From an uncultured Candidatus Binatia bacterium (GTDB lineage: Bacteria > Desulfobacterota > Binatia > Bin18): a stretch of 64,000 nucleotides of DNA. Where the stretch lies: contig OZ241351.1 of NCBI GenBank assembly GCA_965200355.1, positions 529,884-593,883 on the forward strand, written 5' to 3'. Positions 8,256-56,287 of the stretch are shown piece after piece (the first letter of the stretch is position 1; every line of letters starts with the position of its first letter). Made by a program: the position numbers and the translations under genes. The notes below the pieces were generated by a model. It saw only the letters and a program-made list of their open reading frames with translations. It was not told the origin of the DNA and searched no databases.

Positions 8256-8690
8256 CTATCGGGCAAAAATCTGTCCCTGGTCTCGAAACGCCTTGAACTC
8301 CAAACCGTTTTGGCTGGGGTCTAAGAGAAACATGGTGGCCTGTTCACCAACTTGGCCACGAAAACGAATATAGGGCGTAATCAAGAACGAGACACCGGCC
8401 CGCGTCAACCGCTCGGCCAACGCCTGCCAGGCGTCCCAGTCAAGAATCACGCCAAAATGCCGGACCGGAACCTGCTGGCCGTCAACCGGATTGGTCGCCG
8501 CGAGTTGAGTTTCTTCAGGAGCCAGATGGGTGGTGACCTGGTGGCCAAAAAAATTGAAATCAATCCAGGTTGCGCTCTCGCGGCCCACCGAACAGCCCAA
8601 GCGGTCAACATAAAATCTCCGCGCGGCCTCCAGGTCCTGAACGGGGAGGGCCAGGTGAAAGGGAATGCTGGGCATGGGTCTGTCCTGCAT
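8256..8690 (-). CDS. VOC (glyoxalase/bleomycin-resistance/dioxygenase) family protein
   Basis: [21 protein letters not shown] is the typical N-terminus of a VOC beta-alpha-beta-beta-beta module. Confidence 0.7.
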
Positions 8691-9436: not shown

Positions 9437-12400
9437 TTGGAAACCAAGGCTACGGGTGGGGGCTCGATTCGGGTCACTGGCGCGCGCCAGAACAATCTCA
9501 AAAACATCGATGTGCAGATTCCCCTGCGCCAACTGACGGTCGTGACCGGGGTCAGTGGGTCGGGCAAGTCGAGCCTGGCCTTCGATATTTTGTACGCTGA
9601 AGGGCAGCGGCGCTACGTCGAGAGCTTCTCGGCCTACGCGCGGCAATTTCTCGACCGGATGGACAAGCCCCAGGTCGAGCGCATTGACGGCATTCTGCCG
9701 GCCATTGCCATTGACCAGAACCGTCCTGTGCGGACCTCGCGTTCAACCGTGGGGACCATGACCGAGCTCCACGATCACCTCAAGCTGCTGTTTGCCAAAA
9801 TCGGCCGGCTGTACTGTCGGGAATGCGGGCAACCCGTAGAGCGCGACTCGGCCGAGTCGGTGTATAAAAAGCTCCGCCAGGAAAAGCCGGCCGGCTGTCG
9901 TTTTCTGGTCACGTTCAGTGTGGCCACGCCGGCCAGCCTGCCCTGGGAAGAAGTGCGCAACGGTCTGTTGCAGTCCGGTTTCTATCGGCTGGTTGTGGCT
10001 GGGAAGCCGGTCGATATCCAAGAATTGCCAGATCGACCCGAAGCGGAGCAGGAAACCTGTACCGTTCTGGTTGACCGCCTGACACTCACCACCCGCGCGA
10101 AAAAGCGCATTCACGACTCATGCGAACACACCTTTCAGTATGGCAAGGGGCGTCTGAGTCTGATTTTCCCCGATGCAGACCACCAAGAGGAATGCACCGT
10201 CATGCCGTTCTCGGAGCAGCTGGAGTGCGCGGCGTGCGGTATCGCCTATCAAGAGCCCGTGCCGAATATGTTCTCGTTTAACAGCCCGCTCGGTGCGTGC
10301 GAGACCTGTCGCGGGTTTGGTCGCACGATTGATATTGACCCGGAGCTGATCGTCCCCGACCCGACCCTGACGCTGAAACAGGGGGCCATTAAGCCCTGGC
10401 GGATCAAAGCGGCGCAATGGGAGCGCCGCGAGCTGTTTGCCTTTTGCGAACAGCAGGCCATTCCGACCGACGTGGCCTGGCAGGCGCTTGGCCGGGAGCA
10501 GCAGCAGGCCATTATGGACGGCGAGGGGGACTACTACGGCGTCCGGGGGTGGTTCAAGTGGCTGGAAACCAAAACGTATAAGATGCACGTGCGCATCTTT
10601 CTGGCCCGCTACCGGGGCTATTTCCCGTGCGAGGACTGTCGGGGGGCGCGCCTCAAACCAGAGGGGCTGCTGTATCGGGTTGGGGGCAAAACCCTGGCCG
10701 ATATCAATCTGATGAGCATCGGGGCGAGCGCAGACTTCTTTGCCACCCTCAAGCTGACCGCCTGTCAGGAGCAGGTCGCCCGGCTCATGCTGGACGAGAT
10801 TCGGAAACGCCTGCGCTATCTGGTTGAGGTCGGGGTGGAATATCTGACCCTGGACCGGCAGTCCCGCACCCTGTCCGGCGGTGAACTGGAACGGGTGGAC
10901 CTGACCACGGCGATTGGGTCCGCTCTGGTCAACACCCTGTATATTCTGGACGAACCGTCAATCGGCCTGCATCCGCGCGACAGCCAACGCCTGGTCCGTA
11001 TTCTGCAAGACCTGCGCGACAACGGCAATACGGTCGTGGTGGTTGAGCACGACCCGGAGATTATTCGTCAGACCGATCATGTCATCGACCTAGGCCCCCT
11101 GGCTGGTGAAAAAGGCGGCGAGGTTGTGTTCAACGGGCCATATCCCAAGCTGCTCAAAGACAAGCAGTCGTTGACCGGTCAATACCTGTCCGGCCGGCGG
11201 ACCATTCCGCTCCCGCCCAAACGTCGGCCTGTCAAGAAAAAATACACGCTGACCGTCCAAGGGGCGAGCGCCCATAACCTGCAGGACATTGATGTCACCA
11301 TTCCGCTCGGCCGGCTAGTGTGTCTGACCGGCGTCTCTGGCTCGGGTAAATCAACCCTGGTGGAAGACGTGCTCTACCATGGCCTCAAAAAGCAGCGGGG
11401 GGAGCCGGTCGGCATTCCGGGCGCGTGTCGCGCCATCCGGGGCGGCGAGCAGTTGGCCGACATTATCTTTGTCGATCAGTCGGCGATTGGCACAACCCCG
11501 CGGGCCAATCTGCTCACCTACACCAAGGCGTTTGACACGGTGCGGCGTCTCTTATCGCAGACCGAGCTGGCGCGGGTGCGTGGCTATACGCCGAGCACCT
11601 TCTCGTTCAATGTTGAGGGGGGGCGTTGCGAGTCGTGCAAGGGCGAGGGCTTTGAAAAAGTCGAGATGCAGTTTCTCTCGGACGTGTACGTCCCCTGCCC
11701 CGAGTGTCAGGGCAAACGTTTTCGGGCCGAGGTGCTGCAAGTCCGCTATCAGGGCAAGAGTCTGACCGATATTCTGCATTGTACGGTTGCCGAAGCCCTC
11801 GCCTTTTTTGGCGAGCACAAAGAACTGACGCGCCGTCTGTCCCCGCTGGCCGCGGTCGGGCTGGAGTATATGCGCCTGGGTCAGGCGCTGACCACGCTGT
11901 CCGGCGGTGAGGCCCAACGGCTGAAGCTGGCCACGCATATCGCAAAGGAGCGTTCCACCGACTCGGTTGAGCACGGCACGCTGTTCCTGTTTGATGAGCC
12001 TACAACCGGACTGCATTTTGCCGATATCCAGAAGCTGCTGGGCGCGTTTGACCAACTGGTCGCCTATGGCCATTCGGTCCTGATTATTGAGCACAATCTT
12101 GAGGTCATTAAGTCCGCCGACTATCTGATAGACCTTGGGCCCGAAGGGGGAGACGGCGGCGGGACGATTGTGGCCGTGGGGACGCCGGAAGAGGTGGCCC
12201 AAGCGCCAGCCTCGCATACCGGACGCTATCTCAAGGAGGTCCTGGGCATTGCCACGACCGGACGCCGCTCGCGGCCCAAGTCGCGGAAGGCCAAGCCCCC
12301 AGCCCGGCCACCCGCTGCGGCGGGGGGGACAGGCGTCAACGGAGCAGCGTCTCAGAGCGGGTTGGAGGATACGTTTACGCCTGACGGCCAGTCCATTGCC

Positions 12401-15169
12401 ATTATTGGAGCCAAGGAACACAACCTGCAAGACATTTCGGTTGATATTCCGCGCGACCAGATGGTGGTGGTCACGGGCCTGTCCGGCTCTGGCAAGTCAA
12501 CCCTGGTGTTTGATCTGGTCTACGCCGAGGGGCAGCGACGCTATATTGACAGTCTGTCGGCCTATTCGCGGCAGTTCATTAAAGTCCTCGCCCGCCCAGA
12601 TGTTGATCTGCTGACCGGTATTCCACCCACGGTGGCTATTGAGCAGCGCATGAGCCGGGGCGGCCGGAATTCGACCGTGGCCACCGTGACCGAGCTGTCG
12701 CATTACTTGCGGCTGCTGTATGCCAAAATTGGCGTGCAGCATTGTACGCAGTGTGGCGCGCCGCTGACCGCGCGGAGCCGGAGTCAAATCCTGGAGCGCA
12801 TCCAGGCAGATTTTCATGGCCAGGACATCACCTTTTTCGCGCCGGTGGTGCGAGGGCGGAAGGGGTTTCACAAGGACATTCTCGCGGGGGCGCGCAAGCT
12901 GGGTTTTGTGCAGGCGCGGATCGACGGCCGCACGACGACTATTGAGCCGGGTCTGAGTTTGGCGCGCTATAAAGAGCACGATATCGAGATTGTGATTGGT
13001 CAAACGCAAGTGCGCCGCGCCAACGGCAATCGACGCGACACTGAAGCCCTGCTCCAGTCGGCTCTCCGGGTTGGGAGTGGAACGGTCCAGGTGGGCGGCG
13101 AAGACGAGCGGACCTATAGCGAGCATCTCTTCTGTGCCGCCTGCGGCCTTGGGTTTGAAGAGCCTGACCCGCGCCTGTTCTCCTTTAACAGCCGCCAGGG
13201 GGCCTGTCCGGCCTGCACGGGGGCCGGCTTCGTGTGGGAGTTTGATCCCGCCCTGATTGTCCCGGACGAGGGCAAGTCGCTGAAACAAGACGCGCTGCTG
13301 CCGCTCGCCCGGTCCGAACTAAAACGGGCGAAGACCAAGCTGTTACGCGGGCTCAAAAAGCTGGGGGTGCCGGTTGACCGGCCCTTTAGCGAGCTGAACG
13401 CAGAGCAGCGCCAACTGGTCTTTGCCGGGGACGAGCAGGGCGTGCAAGGGGCGCTCGCTATCCTGAATGACGCGCTCGAATCTGGCCAGGATACGGATTC
13501 GTCTCCTGCGCTCTCGCAGTTCCTGGGCGAGTCGGCCTGTCCGGAATGTCAGGGCGCGCGTCTGAACCCGCGCGCGCGGGCCGTACAGGTCTCTGGTCAG
13601 TCGCTCCCGGGGCTGATGCGTCTGTCGGTGGCAGACTGTCTCGGTCGTTTGCAGGCCCTGCCTCTGTCCGAGCGGGACACGCTCGTCGGGCGACCGATTC
13701 TCAAAGAACTCGTCCCCAGACTCACCTTCCTGAATCAAGTCGGCCTGTCCTATCTGTCCCTGGACCGCCGGGCCGACACCTTGTCTGGCGGAGAGGCGCA
13801 GCGTATTCGTCTGGCCGCCCAACTCGGCTCTAATCTGTGCGGGGTGTGTTATATCCTGGACGAACCGACCATCGGACTGCACCCTCGCGATAATGCCCGC
13901 CTGCTTGAGACCCTGCGGCAGCTGCAAGAACGCGGCAACACCGTACTGATCGTTGAACACGACGAGCAGACAATAGAAAATGCCGATGTGGTGATTGACC
14001 TGGGTCCAGGCGCCGGCGTGCATGGCGGCCAGGTCGTGGCCATGGGCCCGCCCCAGCAGTTGCGTGAAAATAGGGCCTCTCTCACCGGCCAGTTTCTCTC
14101 CTCGGATCATTCGCGGCTCGGCCCGATTCGCTCTCTCAAAGAGCGGCCGCGGTTACGCCTGCGGGGCGTGCGCGAGAATAATCTGAAGAATATCGACGTT
14201 GATATTCCGCTCGGGACGTGGGTGGGCGTGTCCGGGGTGTCCGGGTCGGGCAAGAGTTCTTTGGTCCAGGAAGTCCTGGTCAATGGACTGCGGCGCAAAC
14301 TTGGCTTGTACGTCGGGCGGGTGGGGCTGCATGACAGCATCGAGAATACCGAGGGGGTGGAGCGGGTGGTCGAAGTCGATCAGTCGCCCATTGGGAAAAC
14401 CCCGCGTTCGGTCCCAGCGTCCTATGTGGGCTTCTGGGACGAGGTCCGCAAGCTCTTTTCGCTCCTGCCCGATGCGCGGCTGCGCGGCTATAAACCGGGT
14501 CGATTCTCTTTCAATGTGAAAGGCGGACGCTGTGAGACCTGTAGCGGACAGGGCCGCATGAAGATGGAGATGAGTTTTCTACCCGATGTCTATGTCACCT
14601 GCGATGGGTGCGGGGGCCGGCGCTATAACGAGGAGACCCTGGAAATCGCCTATAATGGCAAGAACATCGCCGAGGTGCTGGACATGACGATTGAAGAGGC
14701 GGCGACATTTTTCATTGGGGTGCCCAAGGTCGCCCAACCGCTCGCGCTGCTGAACGATATCGGCATGGGCTATATCCGGCTGGGGCAGGCCAGCAATACG
14801 CTGTCCGGCGGCGAAGCCCAGCGTATCAAACTGGCCTATGAGCTGGCAAAACGCTCGCGCGGCAAAACGCTCTACGTCTTGGACGAGCCAACCACCGGGC
14901 TGCATTTCGCCGACATCGAAAAGCTGATTCATACGCTCCACCGTCTGGTTGATAAGGGCAATACGGTGGTGACGATTGAACACAACCTGGATATTCTCAA
15001 AGAAGCCGATTACATCGTTGACCTGGGTCCCGAAGGGGGCGCCGGCGGCGGCTCCATTGTGGCCAGCGGCCCGCCGCCGCAACTCATGCAGCAGACCCAG
15101 CAGTCCTATACAGCCCAGTGTTTGCAAGCCTATCTGCACGGAGGGAATCATAGTGCGCGGACAGACTGA
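9437..15169 (+). CDS. uvrA: tandem-fused double UvrA-like ABC ATPase (two complete UvrA modules in one 1910-aa ORF)
   Basis: Module 1 (aa 1 to ~950) and module 2 (~960-1910) each carry two Walker A sites (GVSGSGKSS / [12 protein letters not shown]; [11 protein letters not shown] / [11 protein letters not shown]), two LSGGE signature motifs and Cys4 zinc modules. They are joined by a Pro/Ala/Lys-rich linker ([21 protein letters not shown]) with no stop. Confidence 0.85.
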
Positions 15170-15593: not shown

Positions 15594-16067
15594 GTGCACA
15601 TGGCAAGCCGAAAGCCATTGAGACACATCAGAAATCCCTTAACGCTGATCGCGATATTTGCCGGACTCGCCGAAGTTGCCGCCACTACCGTCCTCCCGAT
15701 GCTCTCAGACGAGACTCAGCAGATATTTGTCTGGTATGTCATGCTCTTCCCGGTACTACTTGTCCTTGCCTTTTTCCTCACACTGAATTTTAATCATGGC
15801 GTCCTGTATTCGCCAAGCGACTTTCAGGATGAGGGCAACTTCCTAGGAGTATTGACTGGCAGGTATTCGGGTGGAACAGGTGATGCAGACGTCTTACGGA
15901 AGTATTGGAAGCCTAATGGCGCCGTGGTAAATAAGCAGAATGAAAGAAGGTTGAAAGAATGGCTCAGGTCCAATGGCCTTGACCCTGAGTCCATTACGTT
16001 CTTTCTTGGAAATGAGATTTTCGCCGCTGCTCGTCAACGGGCAATAGCCGACCTTAAACTCCAGTAA
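15594..16067 (+). CDS. hypothetical membrane protein (two N-terminal TM helices plus a soluble C-terminal domain)
   Basis: ORF in a visibly AT-richer segment. Hydrophobic stretches LTLIAIFAGLAEVAATTVL and VMLFPVLLVLAFFLTL. Confidence 0.45.
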   Translation: MHMASRKPLRHIRNPLTLIAIFAGLAEVAATTVLPMLSDETQQIFVWYVMLFPVLLVLAFFLTLNFNHGVLYSPSDFQDEGNFLGVLTGRYSGGTGDADVLRKYWKPNGAVVNKQNERRLKEWLRSNGLDPESITFFLGNEIFAAARQRAIADLKLQ

Positions 16068-16083
16068 GAATGGGGGGATTCCT

Positions 16084-16302
16084 TTGTCCAAGATAATTTT
16101 TCTTACTGATATTCCTGAGGAATCGGTAGATACGGTTCTTGGAGATTTCGAGAGTGAAGGCGCGACAGCCGAACGAAAGCTCCAAGACAATGGCTTATGG
16201 ACGATTCGGGCATCTTTCGGAGCAGTCTTGGGAGATGCCGGTAATATCTCTCCCTTCCCGCACCAGCAAATGAAGGAATATCGCCAGCTGAGAGAAGGCT
16301 AA
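16084..16302 (+). CDS. hypothetical small acidic protein (72 aa)
   Basis: ORF co-oriented with 15594-16067 in the same AT-richer islet, 17 bp downstream of it. Confidence 0.35.
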   Translation: MSKIIFLTDIPEESVDTVLGDFESEGATAERKLQDNGLWTIRASFGAVLGDAGNISPFPHQQMKEYRQLREG

Positions 16303-16433
16303 AACGGTCGTTTCAGTACCCCTAGTCTTTCAGGTTTCCACCGCTCAAGACGGCGTTACACATCGGCCCACAGCGACGTATAACGCTATCGCCTCCAGCA
16401 AGGTCAAGCTCGCCACGCAGACCCAATTCCCTC

Positions 16434-39300: not shown

Positions 39301-40657
39301 TTAGTTCGCTGTCTCAAACGGGCTCGCTGGTGGCAAACTGGTGGGAGGAGACTGGCGGGCCTTCGCTTCTCGGGTCGCTTGGGTCTCCCGATATTCGCGT
39401 GCCTCCGCGACCCGTACAAACTGCGCCGTTACACCCTTCTTCTTGACGAAATCTTCTACCTCGTCCAGCTTCACATTCTGATAAAACTCTTTTCGCGGGT
39501 TGATCAAGTTCACACGCCGCTCTGCAAAATGTTCGTGGAGCGCCTGCTCAAGCGCTGGTGCGTTATCTGAAAACATCATAGTATGGAGGTCGAAGGGAAA
39601 GGGCACAGAGGCATCTCCCAACTCCTTCACTCGGTCCATAGGCTCCATCCGTCGTGTCATCCCAATCTTAACTACGCCCGGGCCGAATGATCCCTCGTTT
39701 GAGATGACATAGACAAATCCTGATTTTGTGAGCTGTGCCCGAGCTACCGCGCGTTCCTTCCGCTCATGTGTCTCGCTTAGTTTATTCTCTAGGGCGGCAA
39801 TCTGTGCGGTCAGCTTTTCCAACTGTGCCCCTGTTGCCCTATCCGCTGCCGCTTGCGCTTCCTCTAGCGCCTTTTGGTTCCGTGCTTCCTCCCGCTCTGC
39901 TTCTGCCTTGGTCTTTTCCAGTTCTCGTTCCGCTTTCTCTTGCTCCCGCGTCTGTTGCCGCTGTTCGCGAGCCTCCTCGCGTTCTGAGTATTTATTCGTG
40001 CGTGAGCCTGATTTCGTTGAGTTTTTCCTCCAGGTAGGCACCAGTGATGGAAATCTTGACGGCAGCCCCCAGCTTGTTGATGTCAGCATGGGCCTTTTTC
40101 ACTCGCTCTTCTATCTTGCTGATATTATTCCAGGACACTTTGGCAACCGCGGCGTCGCACTCGCCATTGAAAGCCCGGAGTATCACTTTTGTATACTGCC
40201 GCTCCATCTTTTTCCCCTCCGCCCGGCTTCCGTCAATGGTCCATCCGCCAGGAGTTGCAGTGGCCCCGTTCGTCCGGATCAACTCCTTCTGTCGGCCCCG
40301 TACAACCTTCAACTCCGCTTTGTATTCTTCGGATGTGTCGAACTTATAGTGCGGCGAGTAGAGTCTGAACGATATATCCTCCAAGTTCTCTTCGAGGAGG
40401 GAAACCGTGCTCTTCAACTCCTCGTACTTGCTGCTTGCTGATCGGTACTGCTCCTCTAAATCGGTGCGTTTTTCCTGACTTTTCTTCAGGAAGTCCTCAT
40501 GTTCAGCTTTCAGCCGTGCGGATTCCTTTTCCACATCAACGATGGCATTAAAGCGCCTTTCCAGTGCGTTCCTCTTTCGTAAGGTCGAAACAGCGAACAC
40601 GAGGACCACTGGACTACTGGCTGCTAAAAGCCACAGTATAGCCGTTAGAAAATCCAT
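39301..40657 (-). pseudogene. DUF4041 + T5orf172 (GIY-YIG-like nuclease superfamily) domain protein; frameshifted near 40010
   Basis: The N-terminal DUF4041 coiled-coil part is ORF 39992-40657. The C-terminal T5orf172 domain (GFVYVISNEGSFGPGVVKIGMTRRMEPMDRVKELGDASVPFPFD) is in ORF 39301-40089 in another frame. The junction lies in an A-rich run (CACGAATAAATAC). AT-richer than the flanks. Confidence 0.7.
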
Positions 40658-40853
40658 AGCTCACTCCGATTTTCGTATAGATACTTCGTTTGATGGTCTC
40701 CGCTCAAACTCTACCACACCACTCAGGGAAAAACTGTATTAGCATCCGTACAGAATTGACGGACAAAAAGGGGCGGGATAAGTGGATTGGGGCTTAGGGG
40801 GTTCGCATTTTTCTCCCTCTACTTTTTGAGCTTCCCGCCGGCCCGCCAACACT

Positions 40854-40892
40854 CCAAACAAACAAGGGCGGGTTTGATCCCCGCCCTTGTTG
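40854..40892 (-). terminator. rho-independent terminator downstream of hppA
   Basis: GGGCGGG-GAUCAAA-CCCGCCC hairpin followed by UUGUUUGUUUGG on the minus-strand transcript, 20 nt after the hppA stop. Confidence 0.5.
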
Positions 40893-40911
40893 CGTCACAG
40901 TGAAACGCCGG

Positions 40912-46365: not shown

Positions 46366-49330
46366 CTAGGAGAACCCGACACTCACCCCCACGAACCAGT
46401 AGCGGCCCAGACCATCATACAGACCGGGAAAGGTGTTACCGTTGCCGGCGATGGTCGGCCCTGCTGCTGAGCTTACGATTGGCGGGGCCTTGTCGAACAG
46501 ATTGTTCACACCGACGCGGAGGCTGGTGTGTTCATTATAATTCCAGATCGCGGCCAGGTCGAAGTAATGCCGCGCCCCGAGATCGATTTGGTCAGAATTG
46601 AGATCTTCGACGCTGCTGATGTAGCGCCACATGAAACTCGGCCGCAGCCCCCACGGGGTCACCCAGGTGGCGCGTAGCGTGTTCCGAATATCCGGGGTTG
46701 GAAAACCACAGGTAGCCCCCCAGTTGCCAGCGCAGTCTAACTTGCGCGCCCCTTCTAACTCCTGCTTATCCCAGGTGGAGGTGAGCGACAGGATGTCGCT
46801 GAAGCGCAGCCGCCCCCAGCGGCCGACCCCCAAGTCATACGCAACGGTAAAGTCGAACCCCTGCACTTCTTCAACCGCCAGATTGTCCAGCAGCGACACA
46901 ATATGGCCGGCGCTCTCGAGGTCGGAGCCGAGCCACAGGTCGCCGCTGCGCCCCCGTTTGACTTTGGCGCACTGCGATTCGTTCCCGTCCAGACATTGAT
47001 TGAGGATGAACTCCGGCGTCAAGGTGCTGATGCCTTGGCTGATTTCAGTCGAATAATAGTCCAGGCTGAAGTTGAAGCCAGGGATAAAACGGGGCGTCCA
47101 CACCAAGCCTAAGGAGTACGTATCTGATTCCTCAGAGGCCAGGTCCGGGTTGCCGCCTTGCAGAAAATTGTACTGGTCGGCTGGTGAGTTCTCGATATTA
47201 CCAAACTGGGTAGCGGTCACGCCGCTGCGGGCGCATTCCTCAAGGCTGCGGCCTTCAGCCGTCCGGCCGTTTGTGACCGGCCCGGCACAAGGGTCGGCAT
47301 TCATATCGAACGGGTTAAAGCCCTGCGGCAGGAAGCGTTCCCGCACATTGGGGCCGCGAATCGCCCGCTGGAAACTGGCCCGCAGCCTGATGTCGGCATT
47401 GAGGGCCCAGCTTGCCCGGACGCCAAAGGTATGCGTCTGCTCGCCGTAATCGTAGTCCGAGTAGCGATAGCCCCCATCCAGCCCCAGCTCTTCCACAAAG
47501 CGGACGCCATCGACCAGCGGGATACCGACTTCGATGAAAAATTCCGTCACGTCGGAGCCCCCGCTGACAGGCGGGCGGGCGCCGCCCTGGCCGGCCCCAT
47601 CGCCGCTGCGGTAGGCTTGGTCCGGGTTGAATTTCAAATTGTCATCGCGGTATTCGCCGCCCAGGACCACATCCACGCCCGGAGCCGCCAGCGGCGAGCG
47701 CAGGCCATACTGACCCAGATTCCCGGCAATATACCCAGACACAACCGTCTGGTCGGTCGCCCCGCTGGCCGACAGGGGCAAGGTCAGGTAGTCAATCATC
47801 TCCTGGGTCACTGCGCCCTCCCGAAAGATATTCCAGGGGACGCAGTTCGGGTCGGAACCATCCAGCACCGACCGGCAGACGGTTCGACCTGTTGCCGGGT
47901 CTCTGACCGCGTCCAGCGCCCGCCCGACCCGGGTGATCGACAGGTCGTTCAGATAGGTGTTCTGCATCCGGACCTCGGAGTATTGGTAGAACAGGTCGTA
48001 GCGCCAATGCTCACTCAGGTCGCCGCGCAATCCGACCACGCCGCGATACGAGGTGTGATGCAGGTCGTCTTGCCGGTTCCCGCCCTCCACGTTCCGGCGG
48101 CCGATAAAGACCTGCTGGCGGTCATCCCGCGTCAATCCATAGGCCCCGCACAGGGCTTCAAACTGTTGTGGGGACAGGAATGGATTGCCGCAGCCGAGCG
48201 TATCGGTCACAAAGAACGCGCCCGAGGGGGCAATCTGAGCGACCGAGCTATTGTCCATGAACATGAACTCCGTATATGCCTCAACCTGGTCATGCAGGTC
48301 GTAGTGGGCAAACAGGCCGGCGGTCCAGCGTCGGTTGGGGCGCTGAAAATAGTTCGACGGCGCATAGTTGAACAGGGTCCCTTGGCGGGGCACGAAGCGG
48401 TCGCCCTCCACTTTATAGTCAAAGCTCTCCAGCCCCTGACTGCGTAACAGGCCAAAGTCGGAAAAGGTCCCCTGCGGCTGAGTGGCCGAGCCGGAGCAGC
48501 CGGTCAGGTCGCTGCTCAGCGCACACGAACTATAATCGCGGTCGGCCTGGAGCACCGGGTCGATATCGCGGTAGGTCCCGTAGACCGTGACGTTGCCGCG
48601 GTCCAGGTTCTTCCCGGCGATCAGCGAGACATTCGAGATGTCGCCGTCCCACTCCGAGCCGTCAGCGACCTCATAGCCGGCGTCCCGGACAATCCGCTGA
48701 AAGCGGTCGTTGGTTGCCGTGCTGGTACTGGCTGAACTGGTAATCGAGCTTGATACCCTCAAAATCGTCAACCATCAGAAAGTTAATCACGCCGGCGACC
48801 GCATCTGACCCATAAGTGGCCGAGGAGCCGCCGGTCAGCACCTCGACGTTCTTGATCAGCGCGCCCGGAATCTGGTTGATATCGGCCCCCGCGCCGCCTT
48901 GCAGCGGCGAGCCGGCCGGCAAGCGGCGACCGTTGACCAGCACCAGGGTCCGTTCTGCGCCCAGATTCCGCAGATTCAAGGTCGAGGTGCCAGTGGCACC
49001 GTACGACTGGCTGTCGTTCTGGGCAGAGTAGACTTGCGGCAGGGTCCGCAGCATGTCCTCCACCCGGACGGTGCCCTGAAACGACAAGTCTTCAGCGTCA
49101 ACCTGGATGACCGGGCTGGAACTGACCAAATTCGCCCTTTGGATACGTGAGCCGGTTACGACCAGGGCTTCCAGTTCTGCCGGCTCCTGGCGAGATTCAG
49201 CCTCCGGCTGCTCGGCGCTCGGCTGCTCGGCGCTCGGCTGCTCGGCGTCCGCGGCCAGGGCCGACGCGGGGAGACTGGCTAGGAGCAGGGCCAGGGCGAC
49301 TCGACTCCACACTACGGTTCTTTTTGTCAT
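46366..49330 (-). CDS. TonB-dependent receptor (large, about 985 aa), copy 1; apparent -1/+1 frameshift near 48705
   Basis: Signal peptide, an (AEQPS)n low-complexity stretch, plug domain (ORF 48671-49330), and a beta-barrel ending in a C-terminal Phe (ORF 46366-48771). The frames join at AACCAACGACC; removing one C restores HGNNDRF, which matches copy 2. Confidence 0.8.
49190..49245. repeat. 15-bp tandem repeat (GGCTGCTCGGCGCTC x3) encoding AEQPS repeats
   Basis: Seen directly inside the N-terminus of TBDR copy 1. Confidence 0.6.
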
Positions 49331-49363: not shown

Positions 49364-52300
49364 TCAGGAGATGCCCACGCTCATCCCGACGAACCAGTAC
49401 CGGCCCAGGGCATCGTACAGGCCGGGGAAGGTGTTACCGCCCCGGCCGGCCTCACCGATAATCGGCGGTTCCTTGTCAAACAGGTTGCGGATGCCGATCC
49501 GCAGGCTGGCGTACTGGTTGACCTCCCAGAGCACCGACAGGTCGAAATAGTGCCGGGCATTGACCGGGATGGGGCGGTCCGGGTCGGTCTCGGTGCTGGT
49601 GCTGATATAGCGCCACATCAGACTGGGCTGCACCCCCCAGGGACTCCGCCAGGTGGTCCGCATAATGTTACGGATTCTCGGGGTCGGGGTGCCGCAAGAG
49701 TAGCCCCAGCTCCCGGCGCAGGCGACCTTCGGAATATCATCCGTTGCTTTCAGGGTATAGGTATCGAGAAAGGACAGCCGGTCCGTAAAGTTGACCGAGC
49801 CGTAGCGGCCAAGACTGAGTACATAGTCCACGCTGAAATCGTAGCCGCGGACCTCGGCAATAGCCAGGTTCTCCAGTACGGCCTCAACATGGCCGGTGGT
49901 CTCGATGGTGTTGGAAGACAGCCACAGGTCGCCGCCCGGTCCGCGATTGACCTTGTCGCACTGAGAGAGGTTGCCGTCCAGGCAATGATTCAGGACCGTC
50001 TCGGGCGACAGCGCGCCGACCCCGCCCTTGAGCTCGATTTCGTAATAATCCATGCCAATGCTGAGGCCCTCAAGAAATCTAGGGGTAAAGGTCAGGCCGA
50101 ACGAGTAGGTATCCGCATCTTCGGGAAGCAGGTCGGGATTGCCCCCGATCAGGAAATTGTACTGACCGGCCGGTGAGTCGGGGATATTACCGAACTGCTC
50201 GGCGGTCACTCCGCTCCGGGCGCACTCCTCAAGGGTGCGGCCGGACGCGGTTCTGCCGTCCACCACCTCGCCGGCGCACGGGTCGGCGGTCATATAGATC
50301 AGGCCCAGCCGCTGGGGCAGGAATTGTTCCCGGATACTCGGGGCGCGCACGGCCCGCTGATAGCTGCCGCGCAGGCTGATGTCATGGCTGATGGCCCAGC
50401 CGGCCCGCACGCCGTAGGTATCGGTCTGGACGCCGTACCAGGACGAGCGATAGCCGCCGTTGACGATCAGTTGCTGGATAAACGGCACGTCTTCGATGAG
50501 CGGAATGCCGGCTTCAATGAAAACCGCTGGCACGTCGAAGCCACCCTTGAGCGGCTGCTGTGCACCGCCAAAGCCGGCCCCGTCACCGCTCTGGCTTCCG
50601 AGGTCGGGCTTGTATTTCAGATTTTCCTCTCGCCATTCGACGCCCAAGGCGATTTTGGCGCCGGTGGTGGCAAACGGAGAGACCAGGCCGTATTGTCCGA
50701 GATTAGCCGAGACCTGGCCGGATATGACATGCTGATTGGTGCTGCCGCGGGTGGTGTACGTTCCGGCGATATAGTCGGTCATGTCTTTGGTGACCGCGCC
50801 GTCCTGGAAGATGTTCCAGGGGACACAGTTCGGGTCGGCCCCGGTCAGCATCGACCGACACACGATATCCCCGCTCACCGGGTCGTATACCGCATCCAGG
50901 GCGCGGTTGATCCGGCTGGCCGACAGGCCGTTGACGAATTTGCTCAGCGCGCGCACCTCGGCGTATTGGTAATGCAGATTATAGCGCCAGGCATCGGCAA
51001 TCTCGCCCCGCAGCCCGAACACGCCACGATAGGAGGTGTGGTGCAGGTAATCTTTGCGATTGCCGCTCTCGACGCTACGCCGCCCGATATACACATTCTG
51101 AATGTCTTCCCGCGTCAAGCCGTACTGGCCGCACAGGGCCTGAAACTGCTGTTCAGACAGAAAGGCGTTGCCGCAGTGCAGATAGCGCTGCCTGAAAAAC
51201 GAGCCCGAGGGCGCAATCTGGGGGTGGTGCGGTCGTCCATGAACATGAGTTCGGTGTACGCCTCAACGTGTTCGTTCAGGTCATAGTGGGCAAAGGCACC
51301 GGCGGTCCAACGGGTGTCGGGCCGTTGAAAATGATTCGGGGGCGCGTAGTTGTAGAGGCGACCGTCCCAGTCGGTGAACTTATCTCCTTCGACCTGGTAG
51401 AAGAACGGCGGTCCGGGGTCGTATCCGTCCCTCACTTGGCGGGTGCCGAAGTCGGCAAACAACCCCTTGGGGATGGTGCCTGAGCCGACACACCGGTCAA
51501 GGTTGGGTGTCAAATCGCAACTGGAGTGGTCTCGGTCGCCCAGGAAAACCTCTCCGCCATCCCGCCAAGTCGCATAGGCGGTGATATTGCCGCGATCACC
51601 GTTCAGGTTTTTCCCCAGAATGAGCGACACATTCGACAGCTCGCCGTCCGCGGTCGAGTCGTCGGCCACGTGATAGCCCTGACCGGAGATCAGTTTTTTC
51701 ACCGAGCGGTTGTCATTATCGTGCTGGTGCTGGCTGAACTGATAATCCAGCTTGATTCCCTCGAAGTTGTCGATCAATACGAAGTTAATCACGCCGGCGA
51801 CCGCATCCGAACCATAGGTCACAGAGGAGCCGCCGGTCAGGACATCCACGCGCTTGAGCAGAGCGCCCGGAACCTGGTTAATATCCTCGTTGCCAGTCCC
51901 GCCCCAGGGCGAGCCGGCCGGCATCCGACGGCCGTTAATTAACACCAGGATGCGCGACGAGCCCAGGTGGCGCAGGTTCAGGGTCGCGATCCCGTTCGCG
52001 CCGTTGGCGTTGGAGGCATCCTGACCGCCGGTAAAAACCGAAGGCAGGGAGCGGACCAGCTCTTCCACCCGAACGGTTCCCTGGTGCAGCACTTCTTCGG
52101 CGTCAATACTGACAATCGGGCCAAGCTCGACCTGGTCGTCCGCTTGCAGGAGACGCGACCCGGTGGTGGTCACGACCAGGGGTTTCAGGGCCTCTGGTTT
52201 CTGCGGCTCTTGGCTGGATTCAGCCGGCGGCTCTTCACCGGCTTGCGCCTGTTCAGCGTCCGCCTGAGCGGTGTTTTCGGCCCTGACCTGTCCGGCGAGG

Positions 52301-52434
52301 GCAATGGCGAGGGCCAGCGTTGTGACAAGAGCGGCCCAGCGTGTATACGCTTGCCACTGAGCCAGACCGAGGGGCAGGGTTTCATCCTGGCCCACAACTT
52401 TATCCTGGCCCACAACAAAGTGCGGTTTGGTCAT
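49364..52434 (-). CDS. TonB-dependent receptor (large), copy 2; apparent frameshift near 51240
   Basis: Collinear paralog of copy 1 (plug ORF 51115-52557, barrel ORF 49364-51118). The frame breaks in a C5 run (ACCACCCCCAGATT); a C6 run would give MFMDDRTTPQIAPSG, matching copy 1. Start at MTKPHF (52434). A tandem 15-bp repeat lies at about 52388-52418. Confidence 0.8.
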
Positions 52435-52622
52435 AATGTCTTCCTCATCCTTGGGCAACACGACTATAGGGCGAATGTTTTCGGCGGTATTGTGGCACGC
52501 ATTTGAGCCGCGTTCAAAGGCTGGTTGTGATTTGTGGACAGCCCTTGGTGGGTACACTACCTCCCCTCATGTGTCGAGTGCTGTACCTATTGTGATTTGC
52601 GGCGTTGTGGATTGCGGACCCT

Positions 52623-52915
52623 TCAGAGCAAGTCGTCCATGTCTACGCCCAGGGTCGTGGCAATGGCGGCCAAGGTCTGAGCCGACCCGGTACGTCGGCC
52701 AGTCTCAATCTGGACAGGTAAATCGCGTTGATACAGCGGTCCTGGCCAGTTGCTTCTGTGTCAGTCCGCGCTAGTCACGATACACCCTGACGGCGTTTTC
52801 TCCCGCCAGCAAGCGGTCTGCCACGGCGATGGGAAAGGTTTCTTCATTTTCCACCTTGGCCCGGTCGTACAGTTCTTCGTCGGTCAGACTTGCCTCGCCA
52901 CCCGCCGCTATTATT
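52623..52915 (-). pseudogene. decayed XRE-family HTH gene (HigA-type antitoxin-like remnant)
   Basis: Minus-strand translation gives PIAVADRLLAGENAVRVYRD*RGLTQKQLA... and QIETGRRTGSAQTLAAIATTLGVDMDDLL in different frames, with an in-frame TAG. This is an HTH_3 pattern (LTQxQLA...YLSQIE.G.R) broken by at least two frameshifts and one stop. Confidence 0.45.
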
Positions 52916-52929
52916 CTAATCACGCGGCT

Positions 52930-53739
52930 CTATCGCCGTCGTCGCAAGAAGTCTTCGATCATTTCCTTTTTTGAGTCAATCATTCTGGCGATGAATGCTT
53001 GATAGCTCTCCTTTGGATAATGCGGATTTATGACAAGCGTAATCATTTCAATTGAAATAGAAGACGGCGATATGTGCGCGTACAGGAACTTTAATTCGTC
53101 AAGGTGCTCTTTTAGCGTCAGTTCCCGGCCTGTTGAATACCCCGTCTCGATTCGACGGTTGAGTATTTTTTGGAGTTGTTCATGTGTTGCAATAGAGGTA
53201 GCCGTATCGGAGCGTACATAGACCCTGCCAGATTTGATTTGATCACCATCAGCCATGCTGATGAACGGAAGATAGTGGGGACGATCTTCGACAAGTAGGA
53301 CCTGGAATTTTTTCCCTTTGATTGCACTATATTCGGATTCCTCGAACGAGAAATTGAATACATCGTAGTCGATATCTTCTGGAAGAAATTTCTTTACAGA
53401 ACTGCGTACGTCCGTTTTATCCGTCAATTCGGGAATCCCAACTGAGGACAACGATCCGTCGGTACATTCTTTGACGCCAATGACCATGACACCACCGCCG
53501 GAATTTGCGAAGCCAAGAATGTCACGCGCGAACTCGGCCCTAGCCCCTTTCGGCAACCACCGTTCCTTGAAATCAAGGTAGTCAAATTCGCCGGTATGGT
53601 TTTTCAGCAGTTCTCGTAAATGGCTCCGAGTCGGTTTCTCAAAGAACTTAGCGAACACCTCATAAGTCCATTTTGATTGTTCCTCCTGTTGTGCCACTTT
53701 TGCCACTATCGTCTTTCGAGTCTCGGTAGCTTGACTCAA
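52930..53739 (-). CDS. AlbA_2 (Schlafen-core-like putative nucleic-acid-binding) domain protein
   Basis: DYLDFKERW...ILGFANSGGGVMVIGV...RVYVRSDTATSIATHEQLQKIL matches the AlbA_2 (PF04326) pattern (EFK..., AFANt.GG.l.iGv). In an AT-rich islet. Confidence 0.65.
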   Translation of the reverse strand: MSQATETRKTIVAKVAQQEEQSKWTYEVFAKFFEKPTRSHLRELLKNHTGEFDYLDFKERWLPKGARAEFARDILGFANSGGGVMVIGVKECTDGSLSSVGIPELTDKTDVRSSVKKFLPEDIDYDVFNFSFEESEYSAIKGKKFQVLLVEDRPHYLPFISMADGDQIKSGRVYVRSDTATSIATHEQLQKILNRRIETGYSTGRELTLKEHLDELKFLYAHISPSSISIEMITLVINPHYPKESYQAFIARMIDSKKEMIEDFLRRRR

Positions 53740-53748
53740 AAAGCAGTA

Positions 53749-54924
53749 CTAACGCCGCACGTTATCGTCCTGGACGGCTTGACCTACCATTTGATCAAAG
53801 AGAGCAAGGGCCGCCAACTCAATTTCATCACTAACCTGTTCTCCGAAAGCTATGGTTATTTTGTAGCTAATCCCAGCAGCAACGAGTTGGCCTACAAATG
53901 GTGGAAAACGAGAAAGCTGTTTCACAGCGATTTGTCCTGACATCCGTTTCAATACAAGCATAACGGCTTTAGGCGTTAGATAGCGAGCCGCAAGTTTGGC
54001 GATCCCTTGTTTTATACCTTCCCAATGAGAAGACTGCTTTAGTTCAGGGAATTTTTCATCTACAAATCGTGTTTGCTCGGGAGACATGCCGAAAATACGA
54101 AAAATTTTCTTTGTCATTCTTACAAGGATTCCAACATCAACCGAAATGTCGAGGACGGGTATCGGATTTAACCCATTCGCCGCTGAAGTGACCGCAAACC
54201 ATGATACGACTTTATCAGCAACCACCCTCTTTTCCCTGATAGCCTGTCGAGAGTACGCTGCTGAGTCCGCTCTGAACCGGTCCCGTTTCATGCCTTCTTG
54301 AGAATCAGCAATATCGTTAATCAATTGAGGGAGGTCCCACTTCTTCGGTTTCCTTGTAGAAGTAAGATATACGTGTTTAGGAGCCGGTTTGATGCCATTC
54401 AGCAGGTTGTCCCTGATCTTTTTCAGAGTCTCTGCCTCAGACAAGCCATTATCTTCCCTTTCATCTTCGATGGCTAAGTCAATCTTATTTCGGACAATAA
54501 AACAGGGCTTACGATTATTAACATGAAGAGTCCGATATAGGTGTAAATCTGCTTCATATAATCTGGTACTTGTTACAATTATAAAGCAGTCATAAGAGAG
54601 CAGCTTCAAATCTTGGACATAGGTCTTTTGTGGCCATTTGTTTGTCCCACAGCCGGGCAAATCCACAAAGATTATTCCACCATTAGAAAGCTCTTGGGGC
54701 TCCATTGTCTGCTCCGTGCTTCCCATTTTAGCGATCTTCTCCCCAGCGATTGCATTTATGAGAGACGATTTCCCTGAGCCACTCATGCCTATTACCCCAC
54801 ACTTTATCTCCGTCCGTTCATATTCCTCTTTCATACGCAGAGCTTCGTTGAGAAATTTTCTAATAAAGTCCTCTTGCCCAAAATCTTGACCTATTTCCAT
54901 GATGTTATCCTCTTCTCCTGACAT
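53749..54924 (-). CDS. IIGP/IRG-like (immunity-related GTPase family) GTPase
   Basis: G1 [20 protein letters not shown]3 DLPGCG, G4 RNKID. Extended collinear similarity to the mouse IIGP1 G-domain (NVAVTGETGSGKSSFINTLRG...[35 protein letters not shown]...FVRTKVD versus DLPGCGTNKWPQKTYVQDLKLLSYDCFIIVTSTRL...FIVRNKID). Helical C-terminal domain. AT-rich. Confidence 0.65.
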   Translation of the reverse strand: MSGEEDNIMEIGQDFGQEDFIRKFLNEALRMKEEYERTEIKCGVIGMSGSGKSSLINAIAGEKIAKMGSTEQTMEPQELSNGGIIFVDLPGCGTNKWPQKTYVQDLKLLSYDCFIIVTSTRLYEADLHLYRTLHVNNRKPCFIVRNKIDLAIEDEREDNGLSEAETLKKIRDNLLNGIKPAPKHVYLTSTRKPKKWDLPQLINDIADSQEGMKRDRFRADSAAYSRQAIREKRVVADKVVSWFAVTSAANGLNPIPVLDISVDVGILVRMTKKIFRIFGMSPEQTRFVDEKFPELKQSSHWEGIKQGIAKLAARYLTPKAVMLVLKRMSGQIAVKQLSRFPPFVGQLVAAGISYKITIAFGEQVSDEIELAALALFDQMVGQAVQDDNVRR

Positions 54925-54976
54925 GCTGTCGATATAGTTAAGTACATCCCGGACTGTTTAAGTAGTTAATGGTTTG

Positions 54977-56287
54977 TCACGGCATGAGCCGCATCCCGAT
55001 ATACACCAGGGTAAAGACCGTCAGAAAGACGATGCCGGCCCAACCCAGCAACCGCAGCCAGCGGGGGGGATGCGCGGCCTGCGGGACGTGAGGGCTGAGG
55101 ACGAGCCGATGGTTGGCCAGGGCAATAATCGGCGCAACGAGAAATGAAATAATCGTGGCCAGGTCAATGAGCGTGGTAAAGCTGGTCAGAAACAGCGCAA
55201 TAATCAGATAGCCACCCACCGCACCAATGAGGAGCCAGACGTGATACACCGCGCGGCTGTCCCGTCTGCCCCGACCCCGAGAAAATAACAACGTCCAGGT
55301 GCGGGTCATGGCCCTGGCATAGCCGTCAAAAATGACCAGGGCGGTGCCGAACATGACGGAAAAGGCCGAAGAGGCGATGATGAGATAGCTCCAGTCTCCG
55401 AGCGTTGCGGTGTAGAGCCGAATCACCGCATGGGTGAACTGCGTCCCGCTCTGGTCCGAGAAGGACTGCCCGGAACCGTACATGATGAAGGCCCCGAGCG
55501 TCATAAAGCAGACGGCTAAAAACGCGGTCATCACATACGAGACATTAAAATCGAGCAGCGTCTCCCGCAGGGTCGGCCAGTAGCGGGTCTGTTGAAATCG
55601 TTCAAGCGTCCATAAGCTGTTGAGGGCCGACAGGTCCAAGGGGGCCGGCATCCAGCCCATGAGCGCAATCAGAAAGGCAAAGCCTGAGGCGGTCCAGACC
55701 TCGGACAAGTAAAAGGGCACCGGCGCGGTCGGTCCCCGCACGAGGGTCAGCCCAAAAGCGGTCAGGGTGGACAGCAACAGCACCGTACAAATGACTTTGA
55801 TGAGGCGGTCCAGAGTGCTGTACTCGCCGACCAGCAGAATGCTGACGCAGCCGACGATCAGGCCCAGGGCGGTGTAGATGACGGGCAGGTCAAGCGCGAG
55901 CAGGTTGTTCAGCAGCCCGGCGGTGGTCAGACAGATGGCCGCGATAATAATCGACATCGGGCTGACCGTAATAAACAGGTAGAGGTATAAGGCCCAGTTC
56001 CCGAAGCGTTGATAACCGTCAATCAGGCTTTCTCCGGTCGCGTTGGCATACCGCGAGCCATACTCAAAGGCCGGATACTTCAAGAGATTGGCAATCAGGA
56101 GCGCCCAGAGCAGGGCGTAGCCATAGTTGGCCCCGGCGCGGGTGGACTGTACGAGATGTGAGACGCCGATAGCGGTGCTGGCAAAGAGCAGGCCCGGTCC
56201 CAGGGTCTTGAGCAGGCGCGCCAACTGGCTGTCTTCTGCGTTCGAGGCGGATGTCTCTCTGGCGAAAATCGCTGGTGTGTTTTCCAT
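54977..56287 (-). CDS. mntH: Nramp-family divalent metal (Mn2+/Fe2+) transporter
   Basis: 11-12 TM protein whose N-terminal region LKTLGPGLLFASTAIGVSHLVQST carries the Nramp DPGN-like signature. Confidence 0.85.
   Translation of the reverse strand: MENTPAIFARETSASNAEDSQLARLLKTLGPGLLFASTAIGVSHLVQSTRAGANYGYALLWALLIANLLKYPAFEYGSRYANATGESLIDGYQRFGNWALYLYLFITVSPMSIIIAAICLTTAGLLNNLLALDLPVIYTALGLIVGCVSILLVGEYSTLDRLIKVICTVLLLSTLTAFGLTLVRGPTAPVPFYLSEVWTASGFAFLIALMGWMPAPLDLSALNSLWTLERFQQTRYWPTLRETLLDFNVSYVMTAFLAVCFMTLGAFIMYGSGQSFSDQSGTQFTHAVIRLYTATLGDWSYLIIASSAFSVMFGTALVIFDGYARAMTRTWTLLFSRGRGRRDSRAVYHVWLLIGAVGGYLIIALFLTSFTTLIDLATIISFLVAPIIALANHRLVLSPHVPQAAHPPRWLRLLGWAGIVFLTVFTLVYIGMRLMP

Follow-up and report, generated by a model that had tools for sequence, protein, structure and literature searches.

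The window analysed here is a 64,000-nt stretch of DNA from an uncultured Candidatus Binatia bacterium, and coordinates given below are window positions unless the locus of a relative is named. It contains a 2.0-kb islet (52930-54975) with two adjacent genes in the same orientation, one for a GTPase that resembles the immunity-related GTPases (IRGs) of vertebrates and one for a putative prokaryotic Schlafen (pSlfn), flanked by tandem TonB-dependent receptor genes on one side and an Nramp/MntH-type transporter gene on the other (Table 1). The guanine-plus-cytosine (GC) content of the islet is 0.446 versus ~0.60 in the backbone, that is, 8.5 standard deviations under the other 2-kb windows, with no second stretch like it in the 64 kb. 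GC across 52750-54999 ranges from 0.42 to 0.49 with both flanks at ~0.60, and at third codon positions the two islet genes have values of 0.43 and 0.49, whereas the flanking Nramp gene has 0.77 and a TonB receptor gene 0.70. An earlier note on this DNA had described an AT-rich two-gene islet between the TonB receptors and mntH, reaching from 52560 to 54960, and had proposed it as a candidate two-gene immune module. The composition and the flanks are as described there; the extent holds for 52930-54975, but not for 52560-52930, which has host-like GC and lies outside the AT-rich part.

Table 1. Annotated features of the islet and its surroundings (window positions)
Feature	Position	Strand	Basis
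Predicted full-length IRG (p47/IIGP)-like GTPase gene, 391 aa	53749..54924	(-)	Pfam IIGP, profile search, AF2/Foldseek
Predicted prokaryotic Schlafen (pSlfn) nuclease gene, 269 aa from TTG	52930..53739	(-)	Pfam, AF2/Foldseek
ACP-domain remnant, 8 codons (DVLNYIDS)	54925..54948	(-)	Comparison with DVLNYIDR in P0002
XRE/HTH_3 antitoxin pseudogene, ParE-family toxin partner in relatives	52623..52908	(-)	tblastn
Nramp 3' end, att-like sequence	54974..55099	(-)	Direct repeats in relatives
Nramp/MntH-type transporter gene	54977-56287	(-)	Pfam Nramp in orthologues of L097, L098, L103; host GC
Tandem TonB-dependent receptor genes	46366-49330 and 49364-52557	(-)	Open reading frame list

The first gene of the islet is strongly predicted to encode a full-length IRG homologue, helical domain included, because homology of sequence and predicted fold spans the whole protein and not the G domain alone. 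Residues 33-281 match Pfam IIGP (PF05049) with 103.5 bits (cutoff 24, E=1.7e-29); MMR_HSR1 reaches 43 bits only, there is a weak DUF697 match too, and none of the NCBIfam Era/EngA/YsxC models attains its cutoff. The database version of the protein starts at M9 (position 54900) and is 383 aa long. When a family profile built from 35 homologues is compared with PDB sequences, IRG structures are found at E values of 1e-47 to 1e-38, the best being Irgb10 (4.5e-47; profile positions 6-371 aligned with chain 45-411) and Irga6/IIGP1 (~1e-45), with Irgb6 and GM4951 matched too, and the first non-IRG family is EngA/Der at 6e-12. The AlphaFold2 (AF2) model (pLDDT 87.6, pTM 0.86) behaves in the same manner in a Foldseek search of the PDB, where the top 38 matches are all IRGs (TM 0.6-0.72 over 375-415 columns), GM4951 is the best of them, and dynamin-like proteins (IniA, mitofusin) rank after the IRGs at TM ~0.3.

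The nucleotide-binding motifs are G1 (G46MSGSGKS53), G3 (D88LPG91 followed by C92), and G4 (N146KID149), and G46, G49, G51, K52, S53, D88, L89, P90, G91, and D149 are invariant across the 35 homologues. The C-terminal helical domain has conserved motifs of its own, SAANGLNPIP and PFVGxxxAAGIxYK, and the conserved segments 250-270 and 340-361 are moderately hydrophobic. Bekpen et al. (2005; PMC1297648) took GxxxxGKS, DxxG followed by a hydrophobic or non-Gln residue, and NKxD as the motif criterion for IRGs; they had noticed IRG-like GTPases in bacteria, including cyanobacteria, but a relationship beyond the G domain was not established. The earlier note aligned the protein with the G domain of IIGP1. 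The G1, G3, and G4 motifs that it named are present and conserved, and its IRG call turns out to be stronger than claimed, as the homology runs over the whole protein.

Set beside the vertebrate IRGs (Irga6/IIGP1, Irgb10, Irgb6, and GM4951/Iigp1c), the window GTPase thus shares sequence and predicted fold over its full length, together with the GKS-type P-loop, DLPG followed by a non-Gln residue, NKxD, and a length of ~390-415 aa. It differs in being bacterial, in not being interferon-regulated, in its identity of ~20%, and in having neither the N-terminal helical segment nor the myristoylation signal of IRGs. GM4951 itself is described in PMC9288484 as an IRG of lipid droplets and not as an immune effector. 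At E <= 1e-30 the family has 715 representatives of 50%-identity clusters, probably with eukaryotic IRGs among them, and ten long IIGP-family proteins are tandem IIGP duplications. It is recognized by databases (Pfam IIGP, "IRG-type G domain") and carries no assigned bacterial function; we found no paper that ties bacterial IIGP/IRG/DUF697 GTPases to phage defence. In a scan of genome contigs, the lone GTPase as query returned 0 loci, and an alignment query returned 4 true family loci plus unrelated P-loop matches. A plasmid search gave two full-length matches, both on megaplasmids. A phage origin of the islet genes was considered and rejected, since the viral contigs searched yielded just 1-2 relatives of the Schlafen and none of the GTPase.

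In place of the IRG N-terminal segment, close relatives of the window GTPase have an acyl carrier protein (ACP) domain. The proteins P0002, P0004, and P0221 are 460-aa GTPases with this domain fused in frame at the N-terminus, where it is complete (PP-binding PF00550, 63 bits) and includes the phosphopantetheine site motif LGADSLD. The domain lies at 2451-2681 in the related locus L103; ~210 bp of this region are deleted in the window, and by blastn L103 2421-2647 has no window counterpart, so that only the short remnant in Table 1 is left. No description of an ACP-IRG fusion was found in the literature, and one may speculate that the ACP gives the GTPase a lipid or prosthetic-group tag analogous to the myristoylation of IRGs.

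The second gene is strongly predicted to encode a prokaryotic Schlafen with an intact catalytic motif. Its probable start is the GTG at 53706, giving 258 aa, in agreement with databases and homologues; residue numbers here follow the 269-aa version from the upstream TTG. Residues 53-181 match SLFN_AlbA_2 (PF04326) with 42.8 bits (cutoff 25.3, E=9.1e-11), and the protein is laid out as a helical N-terminal region of ~50 aa, a Slfn/AlbA_2 core (53-183), and a helical C-terminal domain (186-266). Neither the N-terminal region nor the C-terminal 85 aa has a match in Pfam, and the C-terminal domain contains a low-confidence segment of variable length at ~222-245. The AF2 model has a pLDDT of 87.8, and its top Foldseek matches are SLFN14/13/11/12/5, the tRNase domain of SAMD9, DIP2311, and bacterial AlbA_2 proteins. 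The catalytic motif Ex4DxK is intact (E51-FDYL-D56-F-K58); all 37 homologues keep E51 and K58, and at least 90% keep D56. This invariance of the catalytic triad across the family argues for an active nuclease. The AlbA_2/Schlafen call of the earlier note is borne out by the domain score, the fold matches, and the motif alike.

Prokaryotic Schlafens were shown in 2025-2026 to be widespread single-gene anti-phage tRNases with a fused sensor, which cleave the anticodon arms of tRNA upon detecting a phage protein (PMC13056530). According to the same study, their catalytic motif is Ex4(E/D)xK, their sensors are diverse (17% unannotated), and ~30% of their genes are not near defence genes. The suggestion that the Schlafen half of the islet was new to bacterial defence is therefore outdated: bacterial Schlafen defence is already established, and this half extends the known pSlfn family. 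We applied the pSlfn criteria of a PF04326 match longer than 100 aa, the Ex4(E/D)xK motif, an accessory region longer than 40 aa, and defence genes within 10 kb. The window protein has the domain, the motif, and an accessory region longer than 40 aa that may act as a sensor; within 10 kb of the islet, in the window, the only defence gene is a dead antitoxin, and the other neighbours serve transport and metabolism.

RorSlfn5 and EcoSlfn7 (Perez Taboada et al., Nat Microbiol 2026, PMC13056530) share the PF04326 core and the motif with the window protein, and there are further likenesses in the non-nuclease sequence within the same polypeptide, the patchy distribution, and the family members near restriction-modification (R-M) or defence genes. 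There are also differences. The window protein carries a helix and an 85-aa C-terminal domain versus the Ig-like, DUF262, and HisKinase domains of the tested pSlfn proteins (PMC13056530); unlike RorSlfn5 and EcoSlfn7 it has only the dead antitoxin as a defence neighbour; and it adjoins an IRG-like GTPase, the word "GTPase" occurring 0 times in PMC13056530.

The earlier note described the two genes as a compact operon with a 10-bp spacer. That figure does not stand: the gap is 9 nt only to the TTG and 42 nt to the probable GTG start, and in relatives it is 62-150 nt. With gaps of 42-150 nt, the two genes are not translationally coupled. A promoter and terminator scan of the locus gave nothing beyond shuffled expectation.

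Conservation of the pairing was surveyed from both sides. On the Schlafen side, 80 metagenomic loci with family members 29-55% identical were scanned with the hidden Markov model of the GTPase family, and none (0/80) had the GTPase, with at least 1.2 kb of sequence available upstream in 44 loci and downstream in 45; the nearest Schlafen outgroup (62% identity) is also without it. On the GTPase side, no Schlafen neighbour was found in ~13 distinct contexts, which included Oceanobacter, Lignipirellula, Acinetobacter baumannii, two cyanobacterial lineages, Flavobacterium, Verrucomicrobiales, Stakelama, Chryseobacterium, Azospirillum, and two metagenomic lineages. No IIGP-Schlafen fusions were present among the 120 + 100 homologues listed, nor among the ten long IIGP-family proteins. 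The pair was found only in relatives 74-84% identical, at the same chromosomal slot. One of these lineages (L001-L003), met in several samples, has an amber mutation in the GTPase gene, TGG to TAG at W301 (L001 7261-7263), which removes the last 90 residues (W301-R391; ~84 in the relative's own protein) and leaves the Schlafen gene beside it intact; in P0221, a 99%-identical strain, the 460-aa GTPase is intact. A two-gene immune module in the sense of a conserved system is thus not supported, co-localization being confined to one narrow clade, and on this survey the pairing is a juxtaposition peculiar to one lineage. The earlier note would have taken a lack of co-localization among homologues as a refutation, and outside that clade this is what the survey shows.

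In the short Schlafen family (~260 aa), many members sit in unremarkable contexts and some lie within or beside defence genes. One is inserted in a type I R-M operon in the order hsdM-[pSlfn]-hsdS-hsdR (L039 129-6770), another adjoins HsdS and other Slfn genes (L034 221-4217), and others lie beside an MmeI-type IIG enzyme (L069 5127-8792), a 1019-aa caspase-DEAD helicase fusion (L071 7989-11815), or other Slfn genes (L081 6696-11193). The Slfn genes near family members include larger Slfn-HATPase_c_4 proteins. Among 162 clustered neighbours no gene family occurs at more than 3 loci, and the 136 non-redundant neighbours include no recurrent partner.

The GTPase family has mixed surroundings. 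A homologue in Acinetobacter lies between McrBC and a type II R-M system, near an integrase; another adjoins AbiEii/MazE/insertion sequence (IS) elements and a type III-B CRISPR locus, and that of Flavobacterium adjoins a WYL-WCX regulator. The Azospirillum copy adjoins pssA/psd. The cyanobacterial orthologue (L106-L109, 6001-7113) has the same non-defence setting in ~20 contigs, with ferritin upstream and an acyltransferase/DAGAT-like gene plus a fatty-acid desaturase downstream, which hints at a housekeeping membrane or lipid role for the GTPase in that lineage. In a Synechococcales metagenome-assembled genome (MAG; L009 2919-6496), the next genes downstream of the GTPase are a pair that encodes VWA_CoxE and DUF5682 (959 bits) proteins. 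The role of the GTPase is not consistently tied to defence: some lineages have the gene in defence islands, others next to lipid or housekeeping genes. A recurring theme of an IRG-like GTPase with a variable downstream nuclease was considered and rejected, the downstream genes being mutually unrelated. Two candidate partners were likewise discarded: the 309-aa neighbour in Acinetobacter is the type II restriction enzyme of the adjoining R-M system, and the 104-aa neighbour at L110 is a CARF-PD-(D/E)xK fragment of the type III CRISPR locus.

How the two genes came to lie together can be read from the relatives, which share the order Nramp, GTPase, AlbA_2, (HTH), BCCT, and TonB receptors. The Nramp gene, the conserved left neighbour of the islet, is 87% identical to the window at the DNA level. 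Two relatives have direct repeats, of 127 nt and 97% identity in L103 (2295-2421 and 4799-4925) and of 137 nt and 93% identity in L097 (5377-5513 and 7890-8026). The repeats reproduce the Nramp 3' end; the second sits just past the Schlafen gene, and between the two lie exactly the GTPase and Schlafen genes (a 2.4-kb islet). In the window, a ~450-bp deletion has removed the distal repeat. In L001, 3-4 repeat copies (5887-5962, 8535-8594, and 9541-9600) bracket a ParE-HTH gene pair too, the pattern one would expect of successive site-specific insertions at one att-like site. Upstream of the L001 cassette CofC replaces Nramp, and degenerate Nramp-3' and HTH fragments are found there. No integrase was seen in the repeat-bearing loci.

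The same Nramp/TonB slot, taken with repeats of the Nramp 3' end, argues that the islet entered once as a cassette, and the GTPase and Schlafen genes clearly appear to have arrived together. The islet genes have a GC of 0.44-0.46 in every relative versus 0.57-0.64 for the toxin-antitoxin (TA) genes and flanks. Synonymous divergence (dS) is 0.30-0.59 for the islet genes and ~0.4 for Nramp; this agreement points to vertical inheritance of the pair from one acquisition. Both islet genes are under purifying selection, the ratio of nonsynonymous to synonymous divergence (dN/dS) against relatives being 0.25-0.29 in the GTPase and 0.25-0.63 in the Schlafen; this is a looser constraint than that on Nramp (0.08-0.17).

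Immediately beyond the Schlafen gene lies what is left of an antitoxin. When the unbroken HTH proteins (123 aa) from L103 and L001 serve as tblastn queries, residues 29-84 align to 52908-52741 with 89-91% identity, a Tyr codon has become a stop at ~52771-52773, and residues 95-124 align to 52712-52623 in a different frame, which reveals a frameshift. The first 28 codons are lost, and the toxin gene is absent from the window. The GC of the pseudogene is 0.59, that is, host-like. In L001 an intact 86-aa ParE_toxin and 123-aa HTH_3 antitoxin follow directly after the Schlafen gene. A decayed HTH gene downstream of the islet had been reported in the earlier note and is now confirmed as the pseudogene of a ParE-associated antitoxin; of the toxin-antitoxin and defence hot-spot that it placed here, the TA part stands, given the ParE-HTH cassette of L001, but the window itself is not a defence island.

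The remainder of the window is core chromosome, with glnD, ahcY, metK, rpoN, pyrG, and a membrane pyrophosphatase; its CTP synthase shares 92% identity with the enzyme from a "Desulfurellaceae bacterium" MAG and ~80-82% with those from Candidatus Binatia MAGs, and by this one protein the host falls within that group. This part also has a very large open reading frame (ORF) of 1910 aa at 9437-15169 (+). In 500-bp windows, the only other spots with GC <0.50 are 15601-16400 and 40301-40900, at 0.47-0.49. Each TonB receptor gene consists of two overlapping ORFs (801+219 aa and 584+480 aa), and the orthologue of one of them in L097 is an unbroken 1003-aa gene; the split genes are either frameshift pseudogenes or indel errors of long-read assembly. 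The BCCT-family transporter gene (L103 5438-7258) is missing from the window at ~52560-52625, a deletion of ~1.8 kb.

We read the islet as a genomic-island cassette that was acquired once, is now eroding, and carries two independent cargo genes, and would give this reading a probability of about 0.6; that the two genes work independently of one another is the most likely state of affairs on the sequence evidence. A single integration at the Nramp 3' end would have occurred in an ancestor of the uncultured "Desulfurellaceae"/Binatia-like clade, and the same site would also have taken in the ParE-HTH toxin-antitoxin cassette. By analogy with characterized pSlfn proteins, the Schlafen would stand alone, its non-nuclease part (N-terminal helix plus C-terminal helical domain) keeping the nuclease silent until a phage cue arrives; once activated, the Ex4DxK site would cut tRNA anticodon arms, stop translation, and lower the phage yield. 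The GTPase, if it behaves as do IRGs and dynamin-like GTPases, probably binds GTP, forms dimers or oligomers by its G domain, and works on a membrane with its helical domain.

Several observations weigh against independence. The adjacency, shared orientation, short gap, and dN/dS of ~0.25 have been kept across a clade with dS of 0.3-0.6, as would also be seen in a functional pair; most contigs with GTPases 53-57% identical are too short to show neighbours, so that a donor lineage with the pair may be missed; and some of the GTPase homologues are found in genuine defence islands, which leaves room for a defence role of the GTPase and for cooperation. The rival reading is a true, lineage-specific two-component defence, in which a membrane-associated GTPase would sense or regulate and thereby turn the Schlafen tRNase on, or the roles would be swapped. 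Both genes were transferred in one repeat-bracketed cassette with identical composition and have stayed in the same order, with short gaps and under purifying selection, in at least four related lineages; pSlfn effectors combine with many different sensors (PMC13056530), some GTPase homologues have defence-island neighbours, and a TA cassette adjoins this one. Joint transfer and joint retention agree with cooperation without proving it, and we hold such a system to be rather unlikely, given that the pair is absent from the 80 Schlafen loci and the ~13 GTPase contexts and never fused, that the Schlafen has extra domains of its own just as single-gene pSlfn proteins do, that a nonsense allele of the GTPase stands beside an intact Schlafen gene in one lineage, and that there is neither translational coupling nor a known system according to PADLOC. 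Distinctly unlikely is a more specific form, where the GTPase, ancestrally ACP-tagged and perhaps lipid-anchored through phosphopantetheine, would be an immune protein that senses membrane perturbation in infection and licenses the Schlafen tRNase; such a cassette would bring together the ancestors of both interferon-induced effector families.

A contrary reading is that neither gene is defensive and that a housekeeping membrane or lipid GTPase and an AlbA_2 nucleic-acid-binding regulator ride along as neutral cargo. The conserved non-defence context of the cyanobacterial orthologues, the Azospirillum copy by pssA/psd, the ACP domain of relatives, and the lipid-droplet IRG as best structural match all agree with it, as do the window, bare of defence genes within 10 kb save the dead antitoxin, and the share of pSlfn genes (~30%) that lie away from such genes (PMC13056530). 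It is nonetheless unlikely in view of the invariant catalytic triad of the Schlafen, the family members inside R-M operons or beside a caspase-helicase and other Slfn genes, and the GTPase homologues between McrBC and type II R-M or by AbiE and type III CRISPR; the patchy distribution suggestive of horizontal transfer, the low GC, and a dN/dS above that of the housekeeping neighbour also mark accessory or conflict genes. The erosion of the locus might further be taken to mean that both genes are decaying passengers on their way to non-function, as are the antitoxin, the ACP domain, and perhaps the split TonB receptor genes. Gone from the window are indeed the ACP domain, the distal repeat, ParE, the 5' part of the HTH gene, and BCCT, a sister lineage has the GTPase nonsense allele, and both TonB receptor genes are split, but this is very improbable for two ORFs that are full length, have intact catalytic and structural motifs, yield confident structure models, and show a dN/dS of 0.25-0.29 against relatives, well below 1.

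PADLOC found no known system among the islet proteins and only partial, weak matches. Eleos (LeoA/LeoBC) and DynA resemble the window GTPase in that they involve a large dynamin/TRAFAC-type P-loop GTPase that is possibly membrane-active; identity with Eleos was rejected, as the LeoA match (E=9.2e-5) covers residues 32-96 (the P-loop region) only and there is no LeoBC-like neighbour. The window GTPase is moreover 391 aa long versus ~560-600 in those systems, and its fold scores TM ~0.7 with IRGs versus ~0.3 with dynamin-like proteins. PADLOC also proposed PDC-S50 (E=1.2e-6), which was rejected because positions 6-156 of 387 correspond to the shared AlbA_2 domain alone.

A further parallel is the anticodon nuclease PrrC, embedded in the EcoprrI type I R-M operon, since a member of the short Schlafen family lies within an R-M operon and is a predicted tRNA-targeting nuclease; by analogy this suggests a comparable back-up defence logic for the R-M-embedded short Schlafens. 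PrrC nevertheless has an unrelated fold, with an ABC-ATPase-like N-domain and a nuclease domain, and the window Schlafen lies outside any R-M operon. Type II TA systems (HigBA/ParDE-like) are represented by the intact ParE_toxin + HTH_3 pair of L001 and, in the window, by the antitoxin pseudogene. An intact system of this type in the window was rejected, the toxin being gone and the antitoxin dead from a stop, a frameshift, and 5' loss; the TA genes have host-like GC and a repeat-bracketed cassette of their own and are not part of the AT-rich islet.

Should the pair cooperate after all, no earlier prokaryotic immune module would have had an IRG-type GTPase at its base, and the pair would link two vertebrate interferon-effector families to one bacterial cassette. 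On the likelier reading, the short pSlfn subfamily (~260 aa, with a helical C-terminal domain), repeatedly embedded in R-M systems, would extend the Schlafen defence family, and its compactness offers small constructs for testing. The second result on that reading is evidence that the bacterial IRG-like GTPases are full-length homologues of the mammalian IRGs, helical domain included, a relationship that had been left open in 2005.

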